54,749 nt of DNA from Prorocentrum cordatum. Its lineage: Eukaryota. This document shows, in pieces, positions 24,382 through 54,749 of this stretch. Where the stretch lies: NCBI GenBank assembly GCA_963575745.1, contig CAUYUJ010000216.1, forward strand, positions 62,001-116,749, written 5' to 3'. A program made the position numbers and the translations under genes. The notes beneath the pieces were generated by a model. That model was not told the DNA's origin, did no database searches, and worked only from the letters and a program-made list of their open reading frames with translations. Every line of letters starts with the position of its first letter. Within the stretch, counting starts at the first letter, position 1.

Positions 24382-24563
24382 AAGGAGATAGCCAGAGATA
24401 GATAGAGATAGAGAGAATATATATATATCTATATCAGAGAGAGAGAGAGAGGAGAGAGAGAGAGAAGATTAGAGAAGAGAAGAGAAAGATAGCAAGGATA
24501 GAAATAGAGAGAAGCGAAGAGAGAGAGAGAGATAGAGAGAGAGAGAGAAAAAAAGAGAGAGAA

Positions 24564-24601
<38 letters not shown>

Positions 24602-24680
24602 AAAGAACACCAAAGAGAAAGATAAAGAGAAAGAGAAATAAAAAAAGAGAAAAGAAATTGAGAGAGTAGAGAGAAAAAAT

Positions 24681-24715
<35 letters not shown>

Positions 24716-24720
24716 CGAGG

Positions 24721-24775
<55 letters not shown>

Positions 24776-24822
24776 TAGAGAGAGAGAGAAGAGAAGAGAA
24801 GCGAAGAGAAGAGAGAGAGAGC

Positions 24823-24855
<33 letters not shown>

Positions 24856-24891
24856 GAGAGAGCAGAGAGAGAATAGAGAGAAGAGAGAGAG

Positions 24892-24958
<67 letters not shown>
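24299..24958 (+). repeat. Imperfect (GA)n microsatellite abutting the LINE 3' end
   Basis: Directly visible. Confidence 0.95.
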
Positions 24959-24960
<2 letters not shown>

Positions 24961-25325
24961 GACAAGTAGGCGGACCAGGGTCCGTCCGCGAGGCGCACTG
25001 CGGTGCGACAACTCGCTAAACACTATTTGCGGCGGTGCAGCCTTTAGAAACGAGGGCGGGCAACAAAAAACCCCTCCCCCGGCGCAGTGCGACAGACGCT
25101 ACAGACGGCGGACAGACGGTGATGATCTCACCTGTCAGACCGCGTAAAGAAAGAGGCACCAACAAGAAAGGCGACGTGCTGACACGTGGCTAGGCGGCTT
25201 GGCAGACCGCCAGTTGGGCGCTTGGCCGCAAAGCGGCGCGCAGTGACGGGGCACCCCCCGCCCCCACGCCCTGACGCCGTGGACGCGGAGCCACGCGTAC
25301 ACACGGGCAGGCAGAAAGGAGGAGA

Positions 25326-28300
25326 TTAGCGCGGGGCACCAGGTGGAGCGCCGCGGAACGATGACAGCATAGCTTGGATGGTGAGTGACGGCACGGCACC
25401 ATCAGGCGAGGGCGTAAGCAGCTCGGCGAAGGCTCGCCCGGCGCTGTGGAGGCGCTGGAGTAGAGGGCCTTGACGGGCTTGAGCGGCGGCAAGGTCCGCG
25501 GCGAGAGCAGCACGCCTCTGCTGGAGAGCGGCCATAGCCTGGGACAGCTCGGTTTCGCGGTCGGTGAGGGGAGGTTGCTCAGTGCCAGCGGCTGCGGGCC
25601 TCGTGACAGGGGTGTGGTCCTCGGTACGCCTGGCCAGGTGGTGGACTAGCGTAGTACGGCACCCCGTATGCTGACGTACGTCATCCTTGAAGGGTGACTG
25701 AAGGGGAGCACGCGGCCCCAGGGCTGGAGCCGCTAGGGTCAAGCCCCGAGAGGTCGGAAGAGCTGCGTCCTCTCGCTCAGCAACAGTGGAAGCGTGGGCG
25801 GGGTGCGAGGGCCTGCCTGGTTTAGTGCCCTGCGGGGGGGCTGAAGCCGCCCCCGCGGGCTGCCGCTGGTGGAGGGGCGGAATGGTTTGCGCGGTGGGGC
25901 CAATCCTGATGCCGTACGAGGGCTCTGAGGCCAGCCGCGTAGTAGGGTGGCGCCTCGATAGGGCAGCATGGTCGGCAGTGTGAGATGTCGGCGGTGCGTC
26001 GTCAATTCCACTTAGTCCGCGGGGGTCACCCTGGTCGTCGTCGGCGTCTTGGCGGTGACCGATATCGACATATGGGAGCGATGTCGCTCTCGGAGACGGA
26101 GTCGCGGTAGGCGTCGAGAGGTTGCCCGACGGGGCAGGGTTGTCGCTGGCTGGGCCGTCGTCCAAGACGTCCAATCCCCCACCGAAGCTGGACGGGTCGT
26201 CCTCCTGTTCGTCAGCGTCTTGGGGGTGAGCGGCGTCGTCATGTGGGTGCGGTGCCGCACTCGGTGGCGGCGTCGAGGGCTTCGTGCGGATGCCCGACGG
26301 GGCAAGGTTGGCGCTGGCTGGCCCGTCGCCTAGGAAGTCAAGTCCCCCGCCAAAGCCGAACGGGTCGTCCTCCTGTTCGTCGAATAACGCCCGTTGGGCC
26401 TCGGCCCAGAGCTCGTCCGGGTTCTGTGGGATGTCTGGTCCAGCCGCGGGTGGTGCCTGGTCCGACAGCAGGGGGTTTGGTTCCATTTTGTTGAGTTCCG
26501 CAGCTGTAAACCCAGCCCTGCGGTGTGGGAGCGGGAGTGTGCGGTGTCTGCGCTCGTAGATGGCGACAGCGACCCCGTGAAGCACGGTCGCTTGGCGATG
26601 TCGTGTTTTGGCAGCTTCGACAATGTCGTCTGGAAGGTTGTGAGTGCGTGCCGCCGTTGTGGCGAGGGCGTCAGCCTGACGATTGAACTCCTCCGCAATG
26701 GGCCCGATGAGCCCGAGGTCGATGCCCATGTCTCCCAGGTGGCTGGCGATTTTCTCGACGCGGAACATGTTTGGCTTGGCCATAACACATCGGTGGATCT
26801 TTTCCCAGAGGTCCACATGCGTGCCCTGCGGCGCTGGATGTCCGTCGATGATGCTTTGGAACCCATCGACCACTGCCTGGTTGTCGACGAAAACGTGCAC
26901 GGGTCGTTCGGCACATGCCGTAAGGTGGACGATGGCGAGGGTCTCCGCCACCTGGGCGTTCTGCGTTAGGCCGTGGACGCGTGCACTGTAGTTCATGCGA
27001 TGGTCGATGCCGTAGTAGACGCCGTAACCCGCTCGTGCTAGCAAAGGGATGGCTTGGTTGGTACATGCACCGTCTGTGGCAGCGTAGACCCATGTCCAAC
27101 CAGTGTCGTGGTCGAGGTAGGTGGTGTAGGTGTCCTGGGCTGAAGCCGCAGGATCTCCCTCAGGGGGAGGCCGCGGCATGGGCTGTGGCAGCGGGTCCCT
27201 CGCGAGGTCAGCCTGCAGGTCAAGGAGGGCTGGATCTTCGTCGAAGAGCCCGCAGTGTCTTGTGTGCGGCGGGAGACGGGCCCACTGGTCGTCACTGATG
27301 AGGATGGTGAGAGGGAGTCTTTCTCGGGCCCAGCACTTGCAGTCACGAACAGTGTGCTCCTGAGTTTCCTCTTCCTCGTCGCAGTATCGGCAGACGGGGC
27401 TGGGGTCGGCTGACGTGTTTGATCGGGATCGTCGCTGTTGGGTGTGGTCTCCGCCCGACAGGTAGTTCAGGAGGAGCGCCAGCTGCCAGGCCGTGCATTT
27501 GGCTGCTCCTTTGGTTCGGGCGAGCCACGTGCTGGCGAAGAGGTCGAGGCCTTGTTTGACAGAGGCAAGGTATCCAAGGTCGTGTCGCCGTGGCTTGATC
27601 CTCCGCAGGAAGGCTCTGCGTTGTGAGGCCCGCAGCATGTGAAGGAAAGCGTTTTGGGGTAATTCAGCCAGCTGATCTGGCAGCCCCAGTCGTCGTACAT
27701 GATGCCAAATGTGGGCCAGGTCCATCGGAGCTGCTGGAGCGACTGGACGAGTCGTCCGACGGGTCCTCCACCACACAGGGTCTGGACGTGGTGTTGAAGG
27801 TCTCTGGCGAACCCGCAGAGTGTAACGTCGCGGTTAACCTGTCGCCGCAGGCACAGGAATGCTTCACGCTGCGTGATGGCGTCGATCTCCAGGGCGTGTC
27901 CTGGGACGCACACGGCCATGAGAGTCCAGAACTCGACCCATTTGTTCCCCTTGGGGCGGATAGCCGCCTTGAGGGCGTGGTTGTAGGCAGTTTTGGCAGG
28001 GCCCGATGGTGCTTGAATGTCGGTGCCCGTGGTGCAGACACTGGCCGCAAGGGAACGGGCGTGCCGCGCCTTGATAAGCATCGGTGATGGGAGCTTGCCA
28101 ATGCGCGGCAGGCGAATAGTCGCCCTCCGAACACGGGCATCTGCGGTGGCCGTGAGGTTTAGCGCGGCTGGAACCAGCGCTGCCTCGGCGTTGATGTAAC
28201 TCCCGACGAGCTTGAAGGAATCGACCACACGTAGGGGCCGCTCCGCCAGAGTGAGCTGGGTGACGGCGGCGTGAAGTTCGTCGGTGAGCGCCCACCCTGC

Positions 28301-30182
28301 CACTTTACCAGGGTGGATGCGTTGACCTGAGAATCGATCAAACTTGGCGGTTTCGTCAAGAGATTTCTGCAGCTCAGACGCGGTGTGGGTGGTGGAGTTG
28401 CTGTCGTCAACAAAGGTAGTGCTGAGCGATCGAGGGACGTATCGATGCTGCCTCTTAGTCCACACGCACATGAGCAGCTTGATGTCATCCAGGGACCACG
28501 AGCTTCCCTGGAGGTGACCGTTAGTCCTGGCCAAGTCCTTAGAGTACGCTCCGTTCATGCGGATGTAGCGTTTGCGGTGGTTGTAGAAGTTTCGGCGGAC
28601 AGTAACGATGTCTTGAGGGCACCCCGCGTGGAGTGCAAGGTTAAGGCAGATGTCCGTGATGAGGTAATCGAAGCACTTCTGTCGGTCTAGGGCAGCTCCA
28701 GCTAAGGGGAGGAGCAAAGCCCTGGCGTGCTCGATGCGCAGGGCGAGAGAGGTGCTGACATCCCCAATGGTAGCTTTGGGAACAGCGCCGAAACTCGTGG
28801 CATGGGTCCATCCTTTCCGCCAGTCCGTGAGGCTACGGTAGGCTGGCGCTTCCCACGCGTACATCCAAACGGAGAGAACCGAGAGGAGTCGTTGGTCCGT
28901 CGGTAGTTCCCCTCGGCCTTTTCTGAGGCACGGGTTTGGCACGTGAAGGAGGGGTTCTGGGATGTTGCCAGTGCGTTGCATAGCACGTAAGACGCTGGCG
29001 AAGAGGCGAAGGATGTCGTCTGGTAACTCCTTGGCCTCCTTAGTTGTCCAGCCGTCGAGTCCCCCCGCGCGGCACGGTGGACGGTTCCGAATGAAGTGGA
29101 TGAGTTGGTCGTCGGTGAGGTGGAACGGGACTGCTGGTGATGGCGTAGGCAGCTCTTGTCGGTACTCGTCATAAAAGTCTGCCCACGTCGGCATGGCTTC
29201 GGCATCATGACCAGCACGAGCGCGGTACCTGCCCAAGATGGGCTCCCAAGTGTCGACCATGAGCTTAAGCATGTCTTTGGTATTGACCACAATGGCGTTG
29301 GCGGGAAGGGCGTCGGGAACCTGGGCAGGTGGTGGGTCACAAGTGTGGCCTTCGTCGTTGTCCGTGTCCAGCGAACTACCGTCGCTGGGGCTGAAGCCGC
29401 CAGCGTCGGTGTCAGCATCGCTGTCGTCCGTGCAAGCTGGGTCAGGGTTGAAGGCGGTGGTGTCGCAGTGGAGTTGCGTATCGTCGGGAGTGGTGGGCGT
29501 GCGGAGGTACGCCGTGGGCGAGCAGTCAGCAGCCCGTGCGTATATGGCCGCCTTTCGCCCGCTTGGCTCGCGGACACCCTCAGCCCAAATCTTGATGCGT
29601 TCAGCTTTGGCTCGGTTTGCACGTCGCGCCAGCTCTGAGTCAAGGTTTTGGATCAGACGGTCCAGGTGCTCTCCGTGCGGTGCTGGCTCGTCGGGGTTCC
29701 AGGCCTCAGGAAAGGCCAGGAGGACCGTGGGGCGCAGCTTGTGGCAGAGAAGGCGGGCCGCGGTCCACGCGCAGTCGATGCGCTGCGCCAGGTGAGGCGG
29801 GATGGCACGGCAGTCGATATGGTGGTGCTGTCCGATGAAGCGAAGCTCACAAAGTTGCCGATGGAGCTTGCGAAGGCGGTTCATGTGAATCGCGGAAGCT
29901 CCGTAGGTGGGAAAGGCGCGGGGGACAGCGGGTCGCTCCTCGAACGTGGGAGTGAGCCCGTGCATGGTAGGGGCCTTCTTTTTTGGGTGGTCTGGCGGCG
30001 GAGGTGGCAGGTCGCGCAGCCGAATGAGATGGCACTCATGGCTGGCCTCGTTTGCCAGGGCGAACATGCGTTCCACATCGTCGCGTGTGTCGGCCTGCAC
30101 CATGCGGTCCTGGTATCGCCCTGCGATTAGGGTCCCTAATGCCTGAAGTTCGTGGTCCTCATGAGCTCCACCGTTAAATAAG

Positions 30183-30228
<46 letters not shown>

Positions 30229-30241
30229 AAAAAAAAAACAA

Positions 30242-30289
<48 letters not shown>

Positions 30290-30325
30290 AAAAAAAAAAA
30301 CAAAAAAAAAAAAAAAAAAAAAAAA

Positions 30326-30377
<52 letters not shown>

Positions 30378-30392
30378 AAAAGAAACACAAAA

Positions 30393-30455
<63 letters not shown>

Positions 30456-30459
30456 AAAA

Positions 30460-30505
<46 letters not shown>

Positions 30506-30526
30506 AAAAAAAAAAAAAACTCAAAG

Positions 30527-30563
<37 letters not shown>

Positions 30564-33500
30564 AAGAAGAAACAAGGGGGTAGGCGTGGGGGCAAGAAGG
30601 CGTCGGGCCGTATGGTCGAGGCGACTGAGGTCGAGCGTGACCTGTAGGCCAACATGGGACTTCGCTGGCAAGTCGCGGAGATAGCAGAAGTCGGTGACAA
30701 GGGATCGCGCCGCTTGGTTGGCGATGATGTAATCGATGCGCGAAGTGCGGGGACACTTGGTGACACGGTCCCAGTCAGGGATATTGCCATATGTGTGCAT
30801 GGTGTGGTCAGGTGTGCCTTCAGCGACGTTAGACCATCCGTGTTGCATCATGTGCAGCAGGTGAGGATTGTCATCGATATTAGTGTTGGCGTCCATGCAA
30901 ATGAAATACGGGGCTGTGCCGACCCTCGCGGCGGCGCAGTCGGCTAGCCGAAACAAGTCGGTGCTGTCTCCTCCAGCGACCCCATAGAGGCTCGCTATGT
31001 AGATCCCAGCGGGCCCGTGGGTGTTTCTTCGCCGCCTGCGGCGGTGCTGGGTGCAGAGCGGGAGGAAGGCCTCGTGCCATCTTTTCTTGGCCTTGAGTGT
31101 GGCGATACAGGACGCAATATCGTCGACGGTGGAGTCGACGATGGCGTCCTTGGAGAGGATGGCGACCCCTCCCGATGCGCCAGTGTTGCCCTGGACTGTG
31201 TGGTCTGTGCCGCCGTGGGCAGCTTTGCGCTGGGCTCGCGCCAGATCCAGGTCAGGTCCCAGACTGGCATGATATCCCCCGTGGTGTGGGTTGGCAGCGG
31301 TGGTAACGATGGCTTGTTTGGTAGGCTTGGCATGTCGGGTCTCCTGCAGTGCTATGACTGCGGCGTTGTGGTCGACACCTAGAGCGGTGATGGTTGGCCA
31401 ATTTGCTGGGAGGCTCGTGATGTTGAGGCTGACGAGATGGATGGAGCGACCTGGCCCGTCTCCATCAGTGGAGCTGGGGTTGGCCCGTCCCGCACGGTGG
31501 AGGGCCGCCTGGCCCTTATCCAGGTAGGAGGCTTGGCCACAGTAGGCGCTCATGGCGTCCCTGCAGATTGGCTTGAACGGGGCTGAAGCCGCCGTCAGGC
31601 CGTAAGTATAGGCGGGGCATGGTCGACACTGCGCCAGGGGGGGTTCATAAACGTCGGCAAAACTGCATCGAAAAATCCTCCTCACTCCTGTACCGTGGGG
31701 GACCAGGGGAGGAGAGGTGAGACGGCAGCAGAGGGAGAGGGAGGCGACTCCTCGATCCGTCCTGCCGAACACAAGAGCAAAAGCAGACCAGCGGCGGCAG
31801 CTCGACGCGGCGGCGGCGCAACGCGCGCGCATATACTGCGCACGCGACACCGCTGGTCCGTCCTGCAGTGGCGCGCCCGCCCCGTCAGTACCGTGATGAG
31901 CAGCATCAGGTGGAACAGCTCGAGCAGCGCGGTCAGTGGCCTGGCGCTGGGCCTCGTCCATGCCCGCTGCCGTGAGACAAGCGTTGCGGACAGGACTGAC
32001 TCCACGCGGGGCCGCCGCTGCCGCGGCAGCGGCTGAGGTGGCGAGGGCGCCGCCACGACTCTGTGGAGAGAGCGGTGAGCCGCCGCCGAAACCCGCCGCG
32101 AGGTCCTTGACGCGGTACTTGTTCTTGAACGGGTCAAAGGTCGGCGCCTCGTCAATGGGGGTGACCACGCGGGTGGGCGGCGGCAGCTCCTGGTCCGTGG
32201 ACGGCGTCGGCTCGAGGTCAACCGCCTGGCCAGGTTCAATGGCGCTGGCACCAAAGCGTGGCACCGCCTCGGGGGCTTGGCGATCAGCCTGAGTCTCGCG
32301 GGGCGGCGAGCTCGGGGAGCTCCCAGGGGCCTTGCGTGAGCTGTGGCGACTGCAGGACCTGCTGCGCGGGACGCGCCCGCCCGTATGGCGGTCGCGTGGC
32401 GAGGTCGCCTGGGCGTTAGCGCGCGCAGAGTCCGCCCTGCTCGGGGAGCGGATCGGCGCTGCGCTGGGTGTTGGACTGGGCTGGCGGGGGCCGCCTGCGC
32501 CGCCCGCCGCCGAGGCTGCAGCCTGGTCAGGGTCGACAGCGTCAGGGCGGGGGCTGATGTGATGGGCACTTCCGTCGCTGTGCCGCGGGGAGGCGCTGTG
32601 GTGCGCCTGGGTGTACGTGAGGACGAGCGGGACAAGCGGCTGCCTCTCACGCTCAGGTGGGGCAGGTTTTGCCTGGGCAGGGCGCAGCGATGCGGCCACG
32701 TTTGGCGGGGGCGTGTGTTGGCGCGGTTGCCAAGCGCGCACGTTCGCATCGCGCCATCCTTCAGGGCGCCCTGTCCTGCCACGGCTTGGTGCAGCCCCCT
32801 GGGCTGAAGCCGCAGGGGTTAGCACTGCGGGCTGGTTGCTGGGTGCGCTGTCATGGCGGCCTGGGTAGTGGCCCCAGGCACGCGTGGACCCTGGCACGGG
32901 CGAGGTGGCCCGTGGGGGAGACTGCACGAGTGCCCGCGAGTGACCGATGGCCGCTGGATGCACCCTGGCGTGGGGGGCATGGCCGTAGCTGGAGGCGGCT
33001 GCTCCAGCCGCCGCGGGCTTGGCGCCAATGGGGCCACGGTAATAGGCGGCACCCCCGCCGTACACCGTGTTGCCGCCTGTCGGGACGCGCGCGGGGGAGC
33101 GGTTGCGTGGAGTGCTCGGCTGACCTGCGTCACGTTGGTCGCGCTGCTGAATGCGCTGCTGGTGCTGTTGGTAGCGCTGCTGGTCGGCTCTCGAGAGCGG
33201 GCGGGTGTCGGGGAGGACAGTGGGCACGACGGGCCGCCGCCAGCCCTGGTAGACGTGCTCGAAGGCGTGGTCTGGGTAAGTCTCCCCGACGGGTGAATAT
33301 CGCCGCACATGCTCCAATGTTCTGCGGCTCGGGGAGCGCCGTGATGTTTACGGCGCGCTGGTGCGCTGGTCCATAGAGACAGAAACTACCACGGTTGCTG
33401 CGGTCGTGATTCAGCTCGGCTTCGGTCGTGGCTCGGCTCACCATGGCGTCGCAGAGGCGCGTGTCGTAGTCGAGAGCTTGAGGCCCAGGTCCGCCCTCGG

Positions 33501-36500
33501 CGTCCCAGTACAGTACCACATCTCGCCAGCGGGTGCGGGTAGTGTGGATGCGCTCGGCGATGCACTCGCAGACGGACCTGACTGTGACGCGATCCCTGTG
33601 CATGTTGGTGATGGTTAGGGAATAAGGTCGGCGGACCGTTTTGTTGAAGGTGAAGTCCTCCTTGAGGGCCTGGTGGGGGCCGAAGAGCACGTAGCCTTCC
33701 CTCCACAGCGGTTGGTCGGGGGACGGGTCTTCAGGCATCCCCGTTCCTGTGAACCCAGGTGGCCGCCGCGTGACGTCGGGCAATCCCTGCCTGGGGACCC
33801 GCCGCGGCCTCGGTGGAAGGTACCATTGACCCTGGTAACCAGCTTGGCCTGGTTGTGGAGGCTCCCCCCCGGGGCCTGAAGGCGCTCGGGGGGGCTCCTT
33901 GAGGTCGTGGTGGGCTGGCGCGTTGCCAAATTGGCGGGCAAGGATGTGCGGCGGCATCCCTGTGGCACGGACGTCGAGCAGGCTGTGTGGACTGGGCGGG
34001 TGGGGGCACCTGCTGGAAAGGCAGCATGTGTCAGAGTCCCTGTTGTCGGTGCTGAATGCACACGTCCAGCTGTTGCAAGAGTAGTCCGTGGACCAGTCCA
34101 TAGGTGCACGTAGTCCGCTGAGGGCGCAGTCTGGGCACGTTTGTTGGCCCGAGGTGCCGAGCTGCGTGTTGCGGCGGGCCGCACAGTACTGACAGCATTG
34201 GAATCGGCACTGTAGGCATGACCAGCGTCCTGGTAGGGGCGGGAGCGCTTGCTCGTTTGTGCCTGGGTCGTCTGGGTGGGGACGAGGTCGATCCCACAGG
34301 GGCCAGACGTCGGCAAACCAGGACTGGCCTGTAGTGCGGACGACCTCGGCGGGGGGGCGAGCGTCATCGGCGTGGCGCTCTATCCACTGGGGCCCCTTGT
34401 CCGCTGGTACCATGACCGTGCGCCACGTGTCATCCGCCTTGACGTGGACTTGGGTCGGTGCCCAGAGCTTGGTAGTGGTATCGCCATGGTCGTGGTGGAG
34501 GATGACCCAGCCGTCGCGACCCACCACCTCAGGGTCGGTAACGCGATGGCCCATGACGGTCGTCCCCCACGGTAAGTAGGCGCCGTCGTGGTGATCGCCA
34601 GGTTCAAGCCAGACCTCGATGCCAGGGGCGTTGACACGGGCCCGCACATCGCGGACGTGGAAGGCGAGAACGTGGTAGGCGGTCGGCTCCACTTCCGTCG
34701 CGATGTGCTCCCACGTCTCGATGTCGCTGTAGTCCGAGGTGGAGTTTTCGCCACTCTGCCGTGACGCACGGGAGGCGGATCGCCGTGGGCGGGCGTGGCC
34801 TCGGGCGAGGGCCGCGGCTGCACTGATGAGGGACGGCATACGGCGGTTGTCGTCTCCTGGTGTCGTCGATGAGCGGTCTGGACTGTGTGCCAGGGCGGCA
34901 CCTGACTGGTAGGTACGCGGTGGACCAGGCTCGGCCCCAGGGCTGGAGCCGCTGGGGCGCGACTCGCGTGCGTCGGGGTGCCCCCGCACGGGGACGGCTT
35001 GCAAGCCAGTGTACACAAGGTCGATCAGTGGCTGCGGGTCCAGCTGGAGCTTGCGAAGCGAGACGCGTGGCCGGGGCTGGTTGGGGTCGGCCCTGGTGGC
35101 TGCTTCAGTGTCGTAATAATGTTTGGCCCATGCTCGCGCTGCCTCTGGCGAGTATAGTGCCTGCGGCGGTGGCCACGCTGCCGCGATGCCCAGCCTGCGC
35201 CGAGTGCTAGCTTCGTGGTCGTGGGCTTCAGCGGCCTCACGGAGATCTGGATCATCGTAGCCAGCGATGTGGAGGGCGTGCGCACAGTCGCCCATGCCAA
35301 ATACTTGTGGTAAGGCACGGCACCTGGAGGCAGCTTCCGTGGGGGCACACCAGTCCATGCGGATGAGGAGGCCCAGGACCCGAGGGTAGATGAGGCGCGC
35401 TCCGCGGGCCTCCCCTTTCACGAAGTTGTGCCAGTTTTCACCGCTCGGTGGTTGGGTGGCCTCGCACATCCAGAGCGCGATGGGTCCCCACGCGAGGGTG
35501 TCGTCTTCGAGGCTGTAGGGCGGGTGGGGCGGCACTGCGTACCACGCGGCCAGCGAAGGGTGCACGCTCACGTACGTGCGGCCAACGCTGGTGCCAGTTC
35601 GACCCTTCGTTTCACGGCGGGGCCCTGGCAAGAGGTGCCCTCCGCTGGCAGCGAGACGGGCCGCAAGGTCGCCACGGGTCCCATGCCAGAAGACAGTGGG
35701 CGCGTCGGTGGTGGGTTTGCGGAGGTCCCACGTGAGGTAGGGGAACATCGTCTCGCCTGAGTTTCCGCCCGAGTCTTCGAGCACCCAAGTGAGGCGGTTC
35801 GGGGGGCCTCTGCATGATGTCAGTCCACGGCCCCAGCGCTTGGAGTGTTAGATCATGGGTGAATCGAGGATGGTCGTGAAGTCGCAGAGCGTCTTTGATG
35901 TCCTCTGTAGACACGCCACTGTTACCAAGCGCAAAGCCGTGTTGGTACAGGGCGTTGAGGATGCTCGTCGGCGGCACGGGCACCGCTGGGTCGCGCTGAA
36001 TAGTGTTGCGTAAGTTGCGCGTCGGTGGCTTGAGGGCTAGATGGGGCGTACCAGGGCCTACAGGCGCCTGGGGCCTGGCGGGTGATGCATAGCGTGCTCG
36101 CCGACGTGGTGGTTGGGTGTCCGTGTCGGAAGAGGAACCACGAGCATCTGCATGTCGGAAGATGGACCACGGGCTGTCGCGGGTGCGCTCACGTGGTTCC
36201 CTTACCTCGGCGTCGCTGGCGTGGGCTGTGGCGTCTTCGTGAGTCGGTGGATTACCATAGACCGCGCCGCTCTTGGAACCGTATCGCGGAGACGGGCTGG
36301 TCGATCGTGGTGTGACGGACGAGGCTCGCGATACGGCGGCAGTGACTTCGACGATGGCGGCGGTGGTGGCGGTGGTGACATCGGCGACTGCGGCGGCAAC
36401 TGCTGCGGCGTAGTGTTCCTGTAGCAGCGGATGTCGGAGTGAGTGCACGTGCTGGTCCTCGTGTTCTTCGGCAAGCGTGCGTGGCATTGTGTATGTGGCC

Positions 36501-38023
36501 TCATCACGCGGCCTCCTGCTCGGTTGGCAACAGCGGAGGCACCACTGGGCCATGGGTGAGTCCAGGGCACGCGCACAGATGCGGGCTCCTATGTGTCCGA
36601 CGGCTCCTTGAGCGAGGAGTTTGGCGCCGACAAGAAGAAGACCGCACACCACTCCGCCAGTGGCGATAGCTCCGAGTTTGCCGCTGGCCCATTTCAGGAC
36701 ACCCTCGAGGCCGACCCCGACTGCGCTGGCTCCACCCGAGACAATATCTCTGAGTTTGGCGCTGGTCCACATGAGAGTACCCCACAATGCGGACGCGACG
36801 TTGTATGCCGTTGTGCGTCGGGGTGTGGTGGGCACAGATGGGCCTGGTGCCGCCGCTTGACGTCGTCGTCGTTGTCGGTAGCTGGGGTCTCGGTTCGGTG
36901 GCGGCAGGTACCCATCGATCTGGTCCTTATACGGCATTGCTATCACGATGGCGTACGTGGCTACAAAGAGGCAAATGAGGCAGCCACAGTGTCGTGATGC
37001 CGCTGCGCTGTGCTGGGCCTCGTAGGTACCGCTGGCATCTGGGTTCGCGTCGTCGATGGGGTCGTTATCGATGTCGGCCTGCCAGTGGTCGATGGCGCTG
37101 AGATTGGAGTCAGTCCCGTTAACACGGCAAACAAGAGTGCGGGGCGTGGTGCTGCCGCCTGCGGTCTGGAGATGTCCAGGTCCAGCCAGTGCTGCAGCGG
37201 GGCTGAAGCCGCCACTGCGCGGGCTGGTTCGAGCTGGCGATGCCGTGGCATGGCTTGTCGCGTCGGCGACAGAGGCGCCTTCAGCGTCGTTGAGCTGTGC
37301 GCAGGGGTCGGTCTGGGCCGAGTCGTTGGGCGGACTGCTGTGCGACGGGGTGTGCCCTGAGTGGGGTTCGCTGTCACGGTCATGCTGGGCCGTGTCACCT
37401 AGTGGTGTCATGCCGTCACGATCCTGGGTTTCCATGTCGTCCTGGCTATCGTCCGACGCGTGGAACGAGCCCAGGGCTATGTTGCTGAGGGGCACGACAG
37501 CGGGGCTGAAGCCGCCACTGTGTGCATGGCCTTGGTCAGCAGCCCCGTCGAGGATGTGCTGCACGACGGTCGAGGCCACGCTGAGGGTGGACTGCGATGC
37601 ATGTGTCGTAGTTGACGAGGGCGTACATACACTCGCGATGGCGCCCAACGGTCCCTTGCCGCACGGACCCGCGGCGGCGGTGCTGTTCACGATCGGGTCC
37701 AAAATGGTGCAATGATCGTGCTTGTAGATGCTGCTGTCATCGTAAAGGAAAACGTGCTGGGGCGCACCGCCTGAAGACGGGCGTGCTCCAGCTAGCAAAG
37801 GGAGGGCCATGCTGCAGGCAAGGCGCCGCATGATGGCGAGACCAGGCAGGCGGCGCGAGCGATGAGCCAAAAGCTGCATGTCGGCACACGTCCTCAAATA
37901 CCCCTGAATGCTCATGTACATTGCAACAATCACGGCCCCTGCAAGACTGCGGGCGTCCCTACACCAGATAGCTTGCGCGTGCTGCTGCCAAAACAGACAT
38001 GAGGCGACAAGAAGGAGATACAA
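25326..38023 (-). CDS. LINE ORF2 polyprotein (reconstructed across frameshifts near 35800, 33320, 27660 and an A-tract at 30176-30575): TM-like segments, ART-like, Zn fingers, Ubl, APE, RT, CCHC-type, RNase H, coiled-coil
   Basis: APE: SLNITS, ALQETR, GGVAIL, MDANTN, RIDYII, KSH. RT: GGLDGWT, ALDRQKCFD, GHLQGSSWS, FVDDSN, HPGK. CRYC..H..C. RNase H: ATDGAC, AQVAETLAI, FVDNQAVV, KIASH, NRQADALA. Copy 2 reads through the 27660 frameshift and lacks the A-tract. Confidence 0.85.
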
Positions 38024-38092
38024 CGCGAAGAGGGAAAAGATGCCTCTGGAGGCGCTTCCTCGGAGGGCTGAGGCGGGCTCTCTGAGGCACCT

Positions 38093-40774
38093 TCAATAGG
38101 GTTCCTGGGTGGCCCGACCCTTGTCTTTGCCTTTGTCAGCCCCTGGGGGCCCCGCCCCTGGGGTGACCTGGCCTGGCTGGTCGATCCACCCGCAGACAGC
38201 CACGGGATCAGCGGCCGCTGCAGCTTCCTCCTTCTTAGTTGCCAGAGTGGCCACTTGTGGCAGGTGGATGGTACCCCCCGTGAGGTGCCCGAGGAGGGCC
38301 TGGATGTCGCCGCGCAGTGCAGCAGCTTCGGCGGTTGCCGTCTGTTGCTGGGTGACGACGGTGGCAAGCGCCCGTTCCAACCCCGAGACGTGCTCCGTGA
38401 GTGTGGCCTGGGAGGAGAGAACGCCCGCAAGCTGGACCTGCATGTTATCCACCGTGTTGGCTAGCAGCTCGTGCTGTTGTTCCATGTGCTGGATGCGGGT
38501 CGTGGCAGCATCTGGCGGTTGAGAGGCCGATGCGAAGCGCTCACCAAAGGTGTTGAGTTCGTGGGAGGCCTCGCTGTATTCATCGCCTGATGAGAGGATC
38601 TCGACGTCCTCGGCGTCACCTGATACTTCGGCGGCTGTGGCAGCGTCGCCTTCGGAGTGGCCCCCGCCTTCTGCCGCCACCGTGCCAGGCCGAGAGTCAT
38701 GACCACCTGCTCCTGGGGCGGCTGTTTGTTCAGCGGCTCCGTCCGTGCCGTGCGGGGGTGCAGAGGAGCTGCGGCCTGGGGCACAGTGTGACCTTGCGTG
38801 CGGCGGGACGTCACGTTTCCCACTGGAGGATCGGTGGCGCTTGGCTAAAGGCTCCTCCTTGGGGATCAGGAGCGGTGCGACGCCTTTGCCTTTGGGCGTG
38901 GCAGTCATGAGGTCGTGGAGATAGGGGCTCTGGGCCGCTTTGGTGAGGAGTGTGCCGGTGGCGGGGCTAAAGCCGCCACCACGAGCTGGCGGCGTCACAG
39001 GCTCCGTAATGGTGGTAGGCGTGACGATGGTGACGTTGTCCCGCTTTGGCACCACCTCAGCCAACGGGGCCTCGGTGATGCTCCACGGGATGGGGCACCC
39101 CGCAACTTGTACCGTGTATGTGATTGGGGGCCGATGGGCACGCACTAAGGCAAACTGGGCCGCAGTGGCTGGGTCCCAGGCGGTGTGGTAGACCTCACAG
39201 TCCCATTTGACGGACGGGCCCGTGAGAGTCTTGGCGAGCTGGGTCAGCGTGGCGTGGCGTGCCGCAATGCCAGTGATGCGGTAGCGCGTCTTGGCGAGGG
39301 AGGCCTCGCAGCCGCGGATGCTGACGGCCGCAGCCCTGGCGGCGTCTGACCCCCGCGGAACACGGATCCCCAGTAAGCCTGACTTGCCGTGCCTGACGAC
39401 TCCCAGGGCCTTGAACTCCACCGACTTCTGGAACGCATCTGCCATCGTGATGGGGTGGTCCTCAGGGAACCACACGGTCTGATACTTGTCAGCGGTGGGC
39501 TCGTCAGCACCTACGTTGCTGAGGTCGTAGGTAGCGCCGAGTTGCCCTGATCCCGCCAAGACCTTGTCGACCGCTTGGAGACTGACGCCGAAGGTGGCGG
39601 CCAGGGACCTCTTCCCGACGCCCGATCCAAACCTGCCTAGGCTGTTGCAGGGTTCAAGGATGGTGACGGCTTTAAAGTTGCCGTGGAAGAGGGCCTTGAA
39701 GGTGTCCTGGAGCTGACTATCGAGCTCCTGGCGGCGAGCGTCTTTCTTGGACTCCCTGTGCTTTTGGTTTTGGCGCGCCTTGTCCTGTGGAGCGGAGTCC
39801 CCTCGAAAAGGGCCCTTGGTGCGTGGACCACCGTTCACGGGGGCACCTCCAGAGAACTGGTCCTCGAAGGCCTGATGCATGGAGGGGACTGCGGCGATGG
39901 CCTCGGTTTCATGTATGGTCGCCCGAATCCAGCATACGTGGTCGGCAAAAGAAAAAAAAAACAAATACAAAAAAAAAAAAAAAAAAAAAAAAAAACAAAA
40001 GACAAAAAAAAAAGAAAAAAAAAAAAAACAAAAAAAAAAAAAAAAGAAAAACTAAACAAAAGACAAAAAAAGTAAGGTGGGGTCGATGGTGGCGACGGCT
40101 ACTTTTTCCGTGCAGGCGACCTCCTTGGTGCCCAGCTGGTACACGGTCACGGGGACGTGCGTGTGGACCACTTTGGGCGCCTTGGGGTGACGCTTCAGAA
40201 CGGGGACGGCGAGCTCGGTACCGACGTAGTTGTCGTTTTTTGGGCCCATGACAGCAATCGCGAGCTGGCCCGTGGTTCGCTTGCCCTGCTCGAGGTGGTG
40301 TTGGAGCAGCCGCTCACCGCTCTCGTAGTCGTGGAGGCTGATACTGGGCTTGTACGTCTTGCCGTCGTCGGGAGATGTGGGTTCAGCGAGGACGGGGACC
40401 TTCCAAAAGGCCGGGTCCAAGGCGATGAATTGGGTGCCCGCAGTCTGAAGACGTGCGGAACCCGCTGGTGGGTGTGATGTGTCACCGCCAATGCGCTTAG
40501 GCTTGCTGCGCTGGTGATGATCAAGCGTGTAGCTGATCTGGTTGGTGGCGCACATGCGGATCAGGGCGCTGCCAAGCTTCTTCGTGTTGGACTTGTGCAT
40601 GTCGTACGTTGCCTGGAGCTCGTCCGCGTTCAGTTCGGCAAGCCCGTTGCATGCGGCCGTGGGGGCGGTCAGACCCCGCTTGCTTGAACGCTGCGATGCA
40701 GTCCTGCTTGCGTTGATGGAGAGACCCTTCAGCAGCAGATCGAGGAAACTCTCGGAGGCTGCTTGGAGATGAAG

Positions 40775-40817
<43 letters not shown>

Positions 40818-41039
40818 AAAACAAAAAAAAAAAAAAAAACGAAAAAAAAAAAAAAACAAAAGAAAAAAACAAAAAAAAAATAAAAGAAAAAAAAAGAAAG
40901 AAAAAAAAGATAAGAAAAAGAAAGAAAAAAAGAAAAAAAAAAAAAAAGAGACAAAAAGACAAGAAAAGAAAAAAAAAAAAAAAAAAACCAGAAAAAAAAA
41001 AAAATCAGCCGAACGGCGGTCCGGCTTCTTGGGGGCCAT
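38093..41039 (-). CDS. LINE ORF1 (interrupted by A-tracts at 39946-40071 and 40772-41003)
   Basis: Starts MAPKKPDRRSAD|LQAASE.., continues through ORF-track segments 40052.. and 38093.. and ends in a coiled-coil-like RIQHMEQQHELLANTVDNMQVQL. Lies directly upstream of ORF2. Confidence 0.7.
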
Positions 41040-41191
41040 TGCTGCGGGCGCTCTGGTGAGAAGAGGTGACGCGAATCAGTAGGGTCCTGCTGGGACCCCT
41101 CCGGTCTCGCGAGGCCTGGGAGTCCGGCTCCGAGGCGGGGCGCTTCGCGTCGCGGCTGCGGTCTGAGTGCTGGGCACTCTCGAGCCGAGAC

Positions 41192-41192
<1 letters not shown>

Positions 41193-41239
<47 letters not shown>

Positions 41240-41283
41240 GTGAGAGAGAGAGAGGGAGGGAGGGAGGGAGGGAGGGAGGGAGG

Positions 41284-41341
<58 letters not shown>

Positions 41342-41358
41342 AGAGAGAGAGAGAGAGA
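41193..41358 (+). repeat. (GA)n/(GGGA)n tract between LINE 5' end and PLE 3' end
   Basis: Directly visible. Confidence 0.95.
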
Positions 41359-41603
41359 GTCCCTGTTTGCGACCACCACTGCCTTGAGTACTGATATCGC
41401 TGGCAAGCTCGAACCCTCCAAACGGAGGGCAGTGTCACGGGCTGGACTGTGAGCACACTTTGGGTCCAACTCGCATCGAAGATGCCTGAGAACGAACGGC
41501 AGCGGAGGAGACCGACGTGTGGCAGCATGTCAACACACATACACGGGGTGGAGGTGAAGAGGAAGATGTAGGAGATAATAATAATAAACTCTCGGGTGGG
41601 AAA
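41359..41603 (-). repeat. 3' pseudo-LTR
   Basis: Near-identical to 47263-47507. Confidence 0.9.
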
Positions 41604-41609
41604 GAGAGA

Positions 41610-41646
<37 letters not shown>

Positions 41647-47500: not shown

Positions 47501-47507
<7 letters not shown>
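47263..47507 (-). repeat. 5' pseudo-LTR
   Basis: Near-identical to 41359-41603. Bounded by (GA)n 47508-47586. Confidence 0.9.
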
Positions 47508-47583
<76 letters not shown>

Positions 47584-47586
47584 GAG

Positions 47587-50500
47587 CGGACAAGTAGGCG
47601 GACCAGGGTCCGTCCGCGAGGCGCACTGCGGTGCGACAACTCGCTAAACACTATTTGCGGCGGTGCAGCCTTTAGATACGAGGGCGGGCAACAAAACCCC
47701 CCTCCCCCGGCGCAGTGCGACAGACGCTACAGACGGCGGACAGACGGTGATGATCTCACCTGTCAGACCGCGTGAAGAAAGAGGCCCCAACAAGAAAGGC
47801 GACGTGCTGACACGTGGCAAGGCGGCTTGGCAGACCGCCAGTTGGGCGCTTGGCCGCAAAGCGGCGCGCGGTGACGGGGCACCCCCCGCCCCCACGCCCT
47901 GACACCGTGGACGCGGAGCCACACATACTCACGGGCAGGCAGAAAGGAGGAGATTAGCGCGGGGCACCAGGTGGAGCGCCGCGGAACGATGACAGCATAG
48001 CTTGGATGGTGAGTGGCGGCACGGCGCCATCGGGCGAGGGCGTAAGCAGCTCGGCGAAGGCTCGCCCGGCGCTGTGGAGGCGCTGGAGTAGAGGGCCTTG
48101 GCGAGCTTGGGCGGCGGCGAGGTCCGCGGCGAGAGCAACACACCTCTGCTGGAGAGCGGCCATAGCCTGGGACAGCTCGGTTTCGCGGTCGGTGAGGGGT
48201 GGCTGCTCAGTGCCAGCGGCCGCGGGCCGCGTGACAGGGGCGAGGTCCTCGGTACGCCTATCCAAATGGTGGACAAGCGTAGTACGGCACCCTGCATGCT
48301 GTCGTCCGTCACCCTTAGAAGGTGACTGGCAGGGAACGCGCGGCCCCAGGGCTGGAGCCGCTAGGGCAACGCCCCGAGAGGTCGGGAGAGCCGCATCCTC
48401 CCGCTCAGCCACGATGGAAGCATGAACGGGGTGCGAGGGCCTGTCAGGTTCAGTGCCCTGCGGGGGGGCTGAAGCCGCCCCCGCGGGCTGCCGCTGGTGG
48501 GGGGGCGGAGTGGCTTGCGCGGTGGGACCAATCAAGATGCCGTGCAAAGGCTCTGAGGTCAGCCGCGTAGTAGGTTGGCGTCTCGGTAGGGCGGCATGGT
48601 CGGCAGCATGGGGTGTCGGCGGTGCGTCGTCTATGCCACTCAGTCCGCGGGGGTCACCCAGGTCGTCGTCGGCGTCTTGGCGGTGACCGATAACATCATA
48701 TGGGGGCGATGTCGCTCTCGGAGCCAGAGTCGCTGTAGGCGTCGAGGGATTGCCCGACGGGGCAGGGTTGTCGCTGACTGGGCCGTCATCCAAAGCGTCT
48801 GATCCCCCATCGAAGCTGAACGGGTCGTCCTCCTGTTCGTCAGCGTCTTGGAGGTGAGCTGCGTTGTCATGTGGGTGCGATGCCGCTCTCGGTGGCTGAG
48901 TCGAGGGCGACGTGCGGATGCCCGACGGGGCAGGGTTGGCGCTGGCTGGCCCGTCGCCTAGGAAGTCCAGTCCCCCGCCGAAACCGAACGGGTCGTCCTC
49001 CTGTTCGTCGAATATCGCCCGTTGGGCCTCGGCCCAGAGCTCGTCTGGGTTCTGTGGGATGTCTGGTCCAGCCGCGAGTGGTGCCTGGTCCGACAGCAGG
49101 GGGTTTGGTTCCATTTTGTTGAGTTCCGCAGCTGTAAACCCAGCCCTGCGGCGTGGGAGCGGGAGTGTGCGGTGTCTACGCTCGTAGATGGCGACAGCGA
49201 CCCCATGAAGCACGGTCGCTTGGCGATGTCGTGTTCTGGCAGCTTCGACAATGTCGTCTGGAAGGTTGTGAGTGCGCGCAGCCGTTGTGGCGAGGGCGTC
49301 AGCCTGACGATTGAACTCCTCCGCAATGGGCCCGATGAGCCCGAGGTCGATGCCCATGTCTCCCAGGTGGCTTGCGATTTTCTCGACGCGGAACATGTTG
49401 GGCTTGGCCATGACGCATCGGTGGATCTTTTTTCCAGAGCTCCACGTGCGTGCCCTGTGGTGCTGAGTGTCCGTCGATGATACTTTGAAACCCATCGACC
49501 ACCGCCTGGTTGTCCACGAAAACGTGTACGGGCCGTTCAGCACATGCCGTGAGGTGGACAATGGCGAGGGTCTCCGCAAGCTGGGCGTTTTGCGTAATGC
49601 CGTGAACACGTGCACTGTAGTTCATGCGGTGGTCGATGCCATAGTAGACGCCGTAGCCCGCTCGTGCTAGCAATGGGATGGCTTGGTTGGTGCATGCACC
49701 GTCCGTGGCAGCGTAGACCCATGTCCAACCAGTGTCGTGGTCAAGGTAGGTGGTGTAGGAGTCCTGGGCTGAAGCCGCAGGATCACCCTCAGGGGGGGCC
49801 GCGGTATGGGCTGAGGTAGCGGGTCCCTCGCGAGGTCGGCCTGCAGGTCGAGGAGGGCTGGGTCTTCATCGAAGAGCCCACAGTGTCTTGTGTGCGGCGG
49901 GAGACGGGCCCACTGCTCGTCACTGATGAGGGCGGTGAGAGGGAGTCTTTCTCGGGCCCAGCACTTGCAGTCGCGGACAGTGTGCTCCTGAGTTTCCTCT
50001 TCCTCGTCGCAGTATCGGCAGATAGGGCTGGGGTCAGCTGACGTGTTTGATCGGGATCGTCGCTGTTGGGTGTGGCCCCCGCCCGACAGGTAGTTCAGGA
50101 GGAGCGCCAGCTGCCAGGCAGTGCATTTGGCTGCTCCTTTCGTTCGGGCGAGCCACGTCCTGGCGAAGAGGTCGAGGCCCTGTCTGACAGAGGCAAGGTA
50201 TCCAAGGTCGTGACGCCGTGGCTTGATCCTCCTCAGAAAGGCTCTGCGTTGTGAGGCCCGCAGCATGTGAAGGAAAGCGTTTTGGGGTAAGTTCAGCCAG
50301 CTGATCTGGCAGCCCCAGTCGTCGTACATGGTGCCAAATGTGGGCCAGGTCCAACGGAGCTGCTGGAGCGACTGGACGAGTCGTCCGACAGGTCCTCCAC
50401 CAAACAGGGTCTGGACGTGGCGTTGGAGATCCCTGACGAGACCGCAGAGCGTAACGTCGCGGTTAACCTGTCGCCGCAGGCACAGGAAAGCTTCACGCTG

Positions 50501-51487: not shown

Positions 51488-51519
<32 letters not shown>

Positions 51520-51524
51520 AAATG

Positions 51525-51562
<38 letters not shown>

Positions 51563-51598
51563 AAAAAAACAAAAAAATAAAAAAAAAAAAAAAAAAAA

Positions 51599-51632
<34 letters not shown>

Positions 51633-54600: not shown

Positions 54601-54749
54601 GACGACCACGCGGGTGGGCAGCGGCAGCTCGTGGTCCGTGGACGGCGTCGGCTCGAGGTCGACCTGGCCAGGTTCTATGGCGCTGGCACCGAAACGTGGC
54701 ACCACTTCGGGGGCTCGGCCATCGGCCTGAGCCTCGCGAGGCGGCGAGC
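47587..54749 (-). mobile_element. LINE copy 2 (3' part: APE, RT, RNase H, 3' UTR); runs off the window end
   Basis: Colinear with 24959-32310, with many substitutions, several frameshifts and its own A-tract at 51468-51677. The same 3' terminus abuts (GA)n. Confidence 0.92.

Follow-up and report, generated by a model that had tools for sequence, protein, structure and literature searches.

Long interspersed nuclear elements (LINEs) of the L1, I and Tad1 types usually measure 5-8 kb and carry two open reading frames (ORFs), with an apurinic/apyrimidinic endonuclease (APE) at the N-terminus of ORF2. The locus described here raises the question of whether a single LINE can be about double that size, and can carry a long conserved coding region on its polymerase protein in front of the endonuclease. 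It lies in a 54,749-nucleotide (nt) stretch of the Prorocentrum cordatum contig CAUYUJ010000216.1 (positions 62,001 to 116,749 of the forward strand), referred to below as the window. All coordinates of the element are given on the minus strand of the window, and its sense direction runs from 41192 to 24960. This interval is very probably a dead, full-length copy of an abundant giant APE-type LINE of a dinoflagellate-like genome, the working members of which would encode a fused ORF2 protein of ~4,100 amino acids (aa).

Extent and organisation of the element

The interval 41192-24960 reads as one non-long terminal repeat (non-LTR) retrotransposon with its coding sequence on the minus strand, in the order 5' untranslated region (UTR), ORF1, in-frame TGA, ORF2, 3' UTR and (CT)n tail. 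Its gross length is ~16 kb, and its net length is ~15.46 kb plus the tail when the poly-T tracts that interrupt it are subtracted. Stop-to-stop frames of 460, 652, 826, 905, 1057, 1017 and 835 aa succeed one another from 41434 to 25326; the first three (460, 652 and 826 aa) lie in a common frame, and the later pieces are shifted relative to one another, with overlaps of 218-367 nt.

The 3' end of this copy (copy 1) was fixed by comparison with a second, partial copy in the window (copy 2), as both pass from the same unique 3' sequence into (CT)n. The corresponding junction of copy 2 is at 47590/47589, where its tail adjoins the next element. At the 5' end of copy 1 the first unique base, 41192, adjoins a (CT)n/(CCCT)n tract at 41193-41360. 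Both flanks of copy 1 are thus (CT)n, and because of this a target-site duplication is unreadable there. No terminal repeats were found by self-BLAST of the window. The element is identified as a LINE because of the domain order APE, RVT_1, zf-RVT and RNase_H, the absence of terminal repeats, and the common 3' end followed by (CT)n; the lack of LTRs, a simple-repeat 3' tail and many copies sharing a 3' end are all LINE traits. No match to a spliced-leader-like 15-mer was found at up to 3 mismatches in the whole window, no Rfam family reached its gathering score in 24000-42000, and the fold of the 3' UTR had a z-score of only −1.8.

ORF1 comes to ~2.58 kb net, measured from the ATG at 41039 to the TGA at 38093-38095 and after subtraction of two poly-T tracts of 244 and 127 nt, which interrupt it at 40765-41008 and 39945-40071 (a TAG at 40052-40054 sits within the latter). 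Its two coding pieces hold no stop codons and have a GC content at third codon positions (GC3) of 0.73-0.76. No Pfam family matched either piece at E ≤ 0.01, and a C5 cytosine methyltransferase was absent from ORF1, also among the weak Pfam matches up to E 5. Weak matches of a helical or coiled-coil type fall at residues 450-576 of the 617-aa translation of 38096-39946, and the best ESM Atlas score for ORF1 was 0.77, below the level at which this tool gives a lead.

The first in-frame ATG of ORF2 is located at 37921, 57 codons past the TGA. ORF2 itself (38092-25329, minus one poly-T tract of 406 nt) amounts to ~12.36 kb or ~4,115 codons, its five frame pieces contain no stop codons, and the APE match begins ~6.6 kb into it. 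The initial annotation had placed a single (GA)n-bounded element at 24959..41192, with ORF1 of ~2.6 kb net and ~12.3 kb of near-continuous coding sequence that made up an ORF2 of ~4,000 codons, ~6.5 kb of it ahead of APE. These dimensions agree with the values given here, and its (GA)n corresponds to the (CT)n on both sides of a minus-strand unit. It had also stated that copy 2 confirms only the part up to ~0.9 kb upstream of APE, and the match to copy 2 does end at 32311. Within the tail of ORF2, a 176-nt tandem duplication is present in both copies (26038-26381 and 48666-49009); its units are 77-81% identical and encode a repeated acidic, Gly-rich peptide.

The coding region ahead of the endonuclease

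The ~2,200-codon (6.6-kb) extension of ORF2 ahead of APE, termed the payload here, is integral to the LINE family and conserved as a protein, because it shares a frame that leads into APE, codon bias and hairpins with the rest of the element, is covered by contigs of other sequencing runs, and has 38 relatives which tile it. These five lines of evidence uphold the proposal of the initial annotation that this is a LINE family with a large accessory payload in front of APE.

The open frame 33314-30579 runs from payload-homologous sequence without a stop into APE, and over its initial 111 aa it shares 37% identity with the tail of the relative P0010 (E 3e-9). The nine coding pieces of the element are alike in composition (GC3 0.67-0.76, third-position C 0.42-0.51, no stop codons), and the 3' UTR, when read as codons, contains four stops. 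A 13-nt hairpin motif has 15 matches in the window, all of them on the minus strand and within the two copies, with five in the payload. By chance 0.38 matches would be expected, and none of 100 shuffles attained 15; a stricter rule gave 16 matches on the minus strand and none on the plus strand. The motif has a GC stem and a TYYA loop (25721-38976 and 48349-54034), the flanking arms vary but remain complementary, and where the motif is in frame it encodes GGFSP.

Contigs of four public runs (X1, X2, X9 and X3) were aligned to 30600-39900, a region of 9.3 kb divided into 30 bins. All 30 bins were covered in each of the four runs, and APE, payload and ORF1 had summed depths of similar magnitude; contig depth is not copy number, and this indicates presence and similar repetition, not stoichiometry. 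None of the seven joints listed among the run contigs skips the payload. The linker in front of APE varies in length, as one X9 contig lacks 31889-32788 and a loose end occurs at 32223 in X2, X9 and X3. A further length polymorphism was seen in the N-terminal part of ORF2 (part C), where ~124-129 nt of 37530-37661 are absent from some copies in X1, X2 and X3.

An exhaustive protein search with the 905-aa piece of the payload (piece D) returned 38 relatives, 23 of them at E ≤ 1e-10. All are fragmentary (51-580 aa, 33-93% identical); together they tile residues 6-897 and keep the domain order. A word-index search with the same piece found nothing among proteins of 497-1584 aa or 1585-4525 aa, probably because low-complexity words crowded the relatives out, given that the exhaustive search recovered 38. 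The payload alignment A1 gave no usable conserved stretch, and alignment A2 gave 56 pattern stretches in metagenome contigs and one in viral contigs, none of which was confirmed.

Frame breaks and poly-T tracts

The frame of ORF2 is broken at three places in copy 1. At the first, 35801, a form one base shorter than copy 1 accounts for 1787/6760 of the depth in X1, 1865/6525 in X2, 79.3/79.3 in X9 and 228/772 in X3, and a shorter form occurs at 35804 too (317/8744 in X1). The relative P0004 reads through this site; it is 50% identical to the last 105 aa of part C (E 1e-27) and 75% identical over the next 124 aa. At the second break, a form 8 nt longer (33314/33316) was found at 0/1063 in X1, 174.7/174.7 in X2 (one contig), 29.7/73.7 in X9 and 132.9/654.3 in X3, and restoring the 8 nt gives a reading that matches P0001, P0010 and P0015. 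The third break is absent from copy 2, in which the frame 51694-49667 is open, and from the relatives P0039 and L001.

The breaks are real insertions or deletions (indels) and not reading errors. The initial annotation had assumed that breaks near 35800 and 33320 were errors, but these are indels carried by many copies, and it had counted two breaks where three were found, that at 27663 being the addition. One continuous frame is the ancestral and still existing state, as the other copies and the relatives that span the breaks are unbroken. Copy 1 is full-length but dead, with three indels and three poly-T tracts.

These three tracts, of 127-406 nt, interrupt the coding sequence of copy 1. Five A-rich tracts were found in all on the plus strand of the window (19234-19339, 30172-30577, 39945-40071, 40765-41008 and 51464-51680; 106-406 nt, 83-93% A); each interrupts a minus-strand element, in the sense direction of which it reads as poly-T. 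For two of them a comparison between the copies is possible, and each of these two is present in one copy only, with no prior T-run at the site and no visible target duplication, and one tract opens with AATAAG ahead of its A-run on the plus strand. The poly-T tracts were considered as introns and rejected, as they differ between copies and are without consistent splice-site-like ends. Possible origins are retro-insertion of a tail alone and a feature of the assembly.

Table 1. Features of the element and of its second copy, from 5' to 3' in the sense direction (window coordinates)
Feature	Coordinates	Strand	Evidence or remarks
(CT)n/(CCCT)n tract	41193..41360	-	adjoins the 5' end; presumed microsatellite target; plus-strand purine tract 41187-41360
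5' UTR, ~153 nt	41040..41192	-	read from sequence; single copy
ORF1, ~865 codons net	38096..41039	-	ATG at 41039; stop TGA 38093-38095
In-frame TGA between ORF1 and ORF2	38093..38095	-	flanking pieces (ending 38096, starting 38092) share a frame
ORF2 part C, 762 codons, low complexity, three hydrophobic segments	35807..38092	-	0 stops
Hydrophobic membrane-type segments	37982-38053, 36926-36997, 36596-36685	-	hydropathy scan only
Frame break 1, six C against five in other copies	35801..35806	-	contig variants and relatives
Predicted PARP-like ADP-ribosyltransferase	35347..35820	-	H-Y-E pattern FWHGTR / GRTYVS..AAWYA / MCEA; helical region on to ~34990
Predicted SH3b-like beta-barrel	34378..34695	-	model pLDDT 55-86 for residues 1-100
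Two cysteine-rich clusters, zinc-finger-like	33928..34215	-	Cys pattern in relatives
Conserved block, earlier called ubiquitin-like (possible beta-grasp)	33298..33738	-	relatives and model
Frame break 2, 8-nt deletion	33316..33317	-	contig variants and relatives
Pro/Ala/Ser-rich linker, 628 codons	31430..33314	-	same open frame as APE
APE endonuclease	30708..31376	-	Pfam Exo_endo_phos E 1.6e-4, 21.9 bits against cut-off 24.5
Poly-T tract (406 nt), between APE and reverse transcriptase	30172..30577	-	absent from copy 2 (53015/53017 contiguous)
Reverse transcriptase region, 835 codons	27665..30169	-	RVT_1 match 28292-28744
Frame break 3, 1 nt missing against copy 2	27663	-	copy comparison
Cys/His knuckle after reverse transcriptase (zf-RVT-like)	27324..27444	-	zf-RVT under the cut-off: E 0.03 (copy 2), E 0.02 (L001)
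RNase H	26649..27080	-	Pfam RNase_H E 7.4e-7, 29.9 bits against cut-off 25.8
ORF2 C-terminal tail, 423 codons, low complexity	25329..26599	-	frame and copy comparison
3' UTR (369 nt)	24960..25328	-	strongly conserved between copies
(CT)n 3' tail	24660..24959	-	degenerate CT-rich tracts onward to ~24212
Hairpin motif, ten copies, sense strand only	25721..38976	-	starts 25721, 25838, 27137, 29388, 31580, 32801, 34940, 37200, 37503, 38964
Copy 2, 3' part only	47507..54749	-	cut by the window end; own 217-nt poly-T 51464-51680; several frameshifts

The polymerase part of ORF2

The Pfam curated cut-offs used were 24.5 bits for Exo_endo_phos, 29.6 bits for RVT_1 and 25.8 bits for RNase_H. The N, E, D-x-N, D and H positions of APE were recognised by eye only, the C-terminal part of the domain aligns with the start of P0039, and a search of APE against the PDB sequences gave no matches. 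For the reverse transcriptase (RT), RVT_1 was matched below the cut-off at E 0.024 in copy 1, 0.02 in copy 2 and 0.24 in L001, and P0039 had no match. The order of the RT motifs was established by eye, with FVDD at the place of YXDD; these four residues do not vary between the window and P0039 (alignment A5). The RT is very divergent. The Cys/His knuckle motif that follows it is kept in P0039. RNase H lies downstream of RT in the same ORF, with the frame unbroken in copy 2, P0039 and L001; it was found in L001 at E 2.8e-10, and the profile of the polymerase family matches human RNase H1 (E 1.3e-4), which was the sole meaningful PDB match.

The relatives of the polymerase part are P0039 (1,328 aa, 47% identical), which was the single protein returned by a word-index search with the RT region, and four metagenome loci (L001-L004, 62-81% identical). 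The RT region is 42-77% identical to P0039, L001, L003 and L004. The loci were the 4 confirmed among 242 pattern matches of alignment A5, and at 1.0-4.4 kb each they are too short to reach the payload. L001 holds an open frame of 1,296 aa (62% identical), and in both P0039 and L001 the end of APE, RT, the Cys/His knuckle and RNase H are in one frame. L001 has no hairpin motif on its sense strand, and its 3' region differs from that of the element. L002 was left out of alignment A6, as its translation holds a stop. A profile comparison of the RT family with an RVT_1-bearing neighbour ORF gave a probability of ~0.1, and the three RT-bearing ORFs of the window had no BLASTP match to one another.

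Predicted domains of the payload

The three hydrophobic segments of part C are the only ones in the element with a mean Kyte-Doolittle value ≥ 1.99 over 19 aa, and a fourth, at 36350-36406, scores 1.64. The first of them lies downstream of the TGA but still ahead of the first ATG of ORF2.

The domain that follows part C was modelled with AlphaFold from an alignment of 19 sequences (A3). Its mean predicted local distance difference test score (pLDDT) was 65.9, with core blocks at 77-94. When this model was compared with known structures using VIA-align, 17 of the 19 top matches were to a PARP or pseudo-PARP (Z 4.0-5.6, root-mean-square deviation (rmsd) 4.3-5.7, 113-127 aa), the best, at Z 5.6, having an rmsd of 4.6 over 121 aa, and the best Foldseek match was PARP10 (E 0.13). 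Pfam PARP (PF00644) was matched by 2 of the 19 family members (best E 0.0047) and not by the sequence of the window itself, and the profile of the family gave no matches in the PDB. Copy 1 has all three residues, H in FWHGTR, Y in GRTYVS/AAWYA and E in MCEA, and we take these to be the catalytic triad from the PARP motif pattern. The E is kept in all relatives that cover the site, and the H in all except P0006, which has Q. The individual scores are weak, and their agreement is persuasive; a PARP-like ADP-ribosyltransferase (ART) with an H-Y-E pattern is supported at the level of the predicted fold and motif.

For the next block, the best Foldseek matches were SH3b domains (probability 0.89-0.97, E 0.04-0.15, target-normalised TM-score 0.52), and VIA-align returned 16 chains at Z ≥ 5 (best 6.4, rmsd 2.0-3.0 over 65-75 aa), of which the rows listed are nearly all SH3 or SH3b. 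The block has 17 invariant columns among 7 sequences. An SH3b-like barrel is supported as a predicted fold only.

The Cys pattern of the two cysteine-rich clusters is kept throughout in P0001, and P0013 and P0018 retain the beginning of it. The clusters matched no Pfam family and gave a poor model (pLDDT 24-36). The conserved block that was earlier called ubiquitin-like (Ubl) is 44-75% identical in P0008, P0010, P0015, P0016, P0019, P0021 and P0023, and its model (pLDDT 50-62) has the order strand-strand-helix-strand-strand. Two of its 21 members matched RA_2 at E 0.15, and its best ESM Atlas score, 0.85, was to unnamed clusters and below the lead level of the tool. The zinc-finger and ubiquitin-like calls are weak. 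The initial annotation had listed transmembrane, ART, SH3-like, zinc-finger and Ubl domains in the payload: the ART stands at the level of fold and motif and the SH3-like domain at that of fold, whereas the membrane segments are a matter of hydropathy only, the zinc fingers reduce to Cys patterns in one to three relatives, and the Ubl domain to a weak hint.

Copy 2, selection and abundance

Copy 2 matches 24877-32311 at 93.2% (3,962 nt), 91.4% (1,341 nt) and 91.1% (1,739 nt) identity. It is also dead, with several single-base indels relative to the open frames of copy 1. The two copies differ at 76/2191 first codon positions (3.5%), 99/2191 second positions (4.5%) and 346/2190 third positions (15.8%), and at 11/368 positions of the 3' UTR (3.0%). 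Judged by this excess at third positions and by the RT protein, which is 96% identical between the copies, the polymerase part evolved under purifying selection, and most of the divergence arose in lineages under such selection. The 3' UTR is more constrained than silent sites, as would be expected of a cis-acting signal. Between copies 1 and 2 there were 259 pyrimidine transitions on the sense strand against 101 purine transitions, because third positions are C-rich, and a like trend was seen in the run contigs. Of ~1,150 differences private to copy 1, the 40 shown fall 10/10/20 on the three codon positions, with 15 synonymous and 25 not, which is too few to assess selection on the payload.

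Contig pieces that match the 9.3-kb region numbered from 631 to 38,690 per run across the four runs, and 9,978 of the 38,690 pieces in X1 were at least 99% like copy 1. In at least three sequenced organisms this family ranks with the most abundant repeats, and it also occurs in marine, estuarine and freshwater metagenomes; it looks young and very abundant.

Alternative explanations

Several observations weigh against the reading of the locus as a giant LINE with a fused ORF2. Both RT and APE are under the curated Pfam cut-offs, and PDB sequence and family-profile searches with the RT piece, APE, A5 and A6 gave no RT or APE match. The 5' end rests on one junction, that of copy 1, with no confirmation from copy 2 because the latter runs off the end of the window, and outside the window no contig, protein or second copy joins the payload to RT. 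Frameshifted states are common, as the extra C makes up ~74% of the X1 depth and the 8 extra nt were unseen in X1. The PARP and SH3 matches are at Z < 8, a range that may reflect a mere common arrangement, and Foldseek returned nothing at E ≤ 0.001 for either the ART or the SH3b-like model. The targeting of (CT)n that is proposed below is drawn from two or three junctions, all of them in this window, and we know of no precedent for a LINE protein of 4,100 aa with membrane segments.

The frequency of the frameshifted forms would fit a multi-ORF LINE, in which part C, the ART-SH3-Cys-Ubl region (piece D) and the linker-APE-RT-RNase H region overlap in frame and are made separately or joined by +1 frameshifting, and in which the lineage that is actively copying would carry the indels at 35801 and 33316. 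The extra C is the commoner form in X1 at both 35801 and 35804, the 8-nt-longer form is missing from X1 and is a minority in X3 and X9, breaks 1 and 2 both require a +1 shift, and about a quarter of the X1 pieces (9,978/38,690) are nearly identical to the broken copy 1. This explanation is nevertheless unlikely, as all relatives that span break 1 (P0004, P0005, P0014, P0017 and P0026) and all that span break 2 (P0001, P0010, P0015, P0019 and P0021) are unbroken, and the X9 contigs at 35801 have the in-frame shorter form in 3/3 cases. Variants are also lost from contigs, and where pieces are ~110 nt long an 8-nt indel may end up clipped and not aligned, as a loose end at 33317 in X2 shows. Copy 1 is, moreover, damaged otherwise, by the deletion at 27663 that has no counterpart in copy 2 and by its three poly-T tracts.

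It is considerably less credible that the payload is a passenger, either a captured host gene or a nested mobile element, which is dispensable for transposition. Such a view would suit the fact that no LINE is known to have these domains, the literature search, in which no LINE with an ADP-ribosyltransferase or PARP domain was found, the nearest RT relative with DNA (L001, 62%), which is without a sense-strand hairpin and has a different 3' region, and the sequences of P0039 and L001-L004, which do not extend upstream of APE. However, the payload protein is conserved down to 33% identity with its domain order kept, its ends are continuous into part C and the linker, it shares codon bias and the hairpin motif with the polymerase part, and in 4/4 runs it is covered to a depth comparable to APE and ORF1; there are no internal element ends or tails, and the seven listed joints all retain it. 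That there is no mobile element here at all, only ORF-rich repeats that came to lie together by chance or an array of host genes with a domesticated RT, is the most improbable account. RT and APE below their Pfam cut-offs and a 5' end known from one copy would be compatible with it, but a second copy in the window shares the 3' end, diverged variants number in the hundreds per position across several organisms and metagenomes, the domains are in LINE order with RNase H above its cut-off, and microsatellite junctions occur at both ends. The preferred reading is thus that of one giant LINE with a fused ORF2.

Neighbouring sequences in the window

Between copies 1 and 2 there is another (CT)n-tailed element, at 41650-47505 on the minus strand, with one frame of 1,457 aa (42660-47030) in which RVT_1 was matched no better than E 0.015. 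A sequence 97.6% identical to the first ~250 nt of this element (47257-47505) is found again at 41353-41646, just ahead of copy 1, which may have landed in a short CT run of the 5' end of a second copy of this element. A third RT-bearing frame, of 1,088 aa (20379-23642, minus strand; RVT_1 E 8.2e-12), lies downstream of the copy 1 tail. Several (CT)n-tailed RT-bearing elements in the window lie in the same direction. Further long (GA)n or (CT)n tracts at 9669-10377, 15137-15551 and 18470-18539 adjoin other open frames, an indication that this genome has many (CT)n-tailed elements. The window also contains a tandem array at 3353-4519 (period ~47 nt, copies 82-91% alike over ~1.1 kb) and a 355-nt repeat at 744-1097 and 21575-21929 (98.3% identical, same orientation), one copy of which is inside the downstream RT-bearing frame.

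Proposed mechanism

A working member of the family would consist of the 5' UTR, an ORF1 of ~865 aa, one UGA, an ORF2 of ~4,100 aa, the conserved 3' UTR and the (CT)n tail. The ORF2 protein would carry, in order, three hydrophobic segments, the PARP-like ART, the SH3b-like domain, two Cys clusters, a possible Ubl, the Pro-rich linker, APE, RT, the knuckle and RNase H; ribosomes would get to ORF2 by reading through the in-frame TGA or by re-initiating there. Mobility would depend on target-primed reverse transcription, in which the RT would recognise the conserved 3' UTR in cis. The (CU)n tail of the RNA may pair with (GA)n at the nick, so that new copies would land in (CT)n microsatellites or in older tails, head to tail. 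Pairing of this kind would explain the (CT)n on both sides of copy 1, the copy 2 tail that abuts the next element, and the co-directional (CT)n-tailed RT elements.

As the payload would be on the polymerase polypeptide, it could act in cis at the integration site. It is possible, and we put it forward tentatively, that the ART is enzymatically active and modifies nucleic-acid ends or host chromatin or repair proteins, thus aiding integration or blunting host control; an anti-host role or an inactive scaffold would be alternatives to this. The fuller scheme, in which a membrane-tethered ORF2 protein with an active PARP-type transferase and SH3b-like, cysteine-rich and ubiquitin-like partner domains marks DNA or RNA ends or host chromatin and repair proteins at the nick, and the regular row of sense-strand hairpins organises the RNA, is slightly more doubtful.

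Comparison with known systems

SymbioLINE-Dnmt elements, which are LINEs of the Symbiodiniaceae, are described as encoding Exo_endo_phos, RVT_1 and RNase_H in ORF2 and an accessory DNA methyltransferase (DNMT), under purifying selection, in ORF1; their UTRs are conserved at both ends, and they occur in many copies and have no poly-A tail (de Mendoza et al. 2018, PMC5890265). By this description, the element is like them in its polymerase domains, the lack of a poly-A tail, the large number of copies and an accessory enzyme under selection. It differs in that their DNMT is described in ORF1, whereas ORF1 here is without a Pfam family and the extra domains are inside ORF2, before APE. With L1, I and Tad1 types the element has in common the two ORFs, APE-RT-knuckle-RNase H, a simple-repeat tail and presumed target-primed reverse transcription, but it has ~2,200 aa before APE, an ORF2 of ~4,100 aa, and an RT matched by RVT_1 only at E 0.02-0.24.

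The predicted ART fold is like that of PARP13, PARP1, PARP10, PARP16 and the tankyrases (PDB 4x52, 4dqy, 3hkv, 6hxr and 2rf5; Z 4.6-5.6 over 113-126 residues), and H-G-[ST], Y-x-[SA]...Y and a strand-borne E are common to these and to most relatives of the element. Sequence identity to the PARPs is 3-17%, however, and here the domain is without the helical regulatory domain, WGR or zinc-finger context and forms part of a retrotransposon polyprotein. Among the LINEs that target microsatellites are the (TC)n-specific Kibi elements of fish. They share with the element the (CT)n tail, (CT)n flanks and head-to-tail siting, a likeness of insertion pattern.

A literature search for a LINE with an ADP-ribosyltransferase or PARP gave papers on host factors only, as judged by their listings, and no paper describing the element was found. 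What is new here is the assignment of predicted PARP-like and SH3b-like folds within a LINE ORF2, and the explanation of the frame breaks.

Significance

Host PARPs both help and restrict the retrotransposition of mammalian L1. If the proposed activity of the ART is true, the retroelement would itself wield ADP-ribosylation, and this may serve integration into unusual dinoflagellate chromatin or disarm host control. For annotation, the 16-kb units, frameshifted majority forms and poly-T tracts mean that such elements will be split into many false genes. LINEs are seen as compact two-gene units in which ORF2 starts with the endonuclease, and this family doubles that size and places ~2,200 conserved codons on the polymerase protein, among them a PARP-like enzyme domain in which the catalytic pattern is intact. 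It extends the theme, known from the DNMT-bearing SymbioLINEs, that dinoflagellate retroelements recruit enzymes which modify chromatin or nucleic acids (PMC5890265). An active ART in this position would amount to a retrotransposon-encoded system for post-translational or nucleic-acid modification, of a kind undescribed for LINEs.

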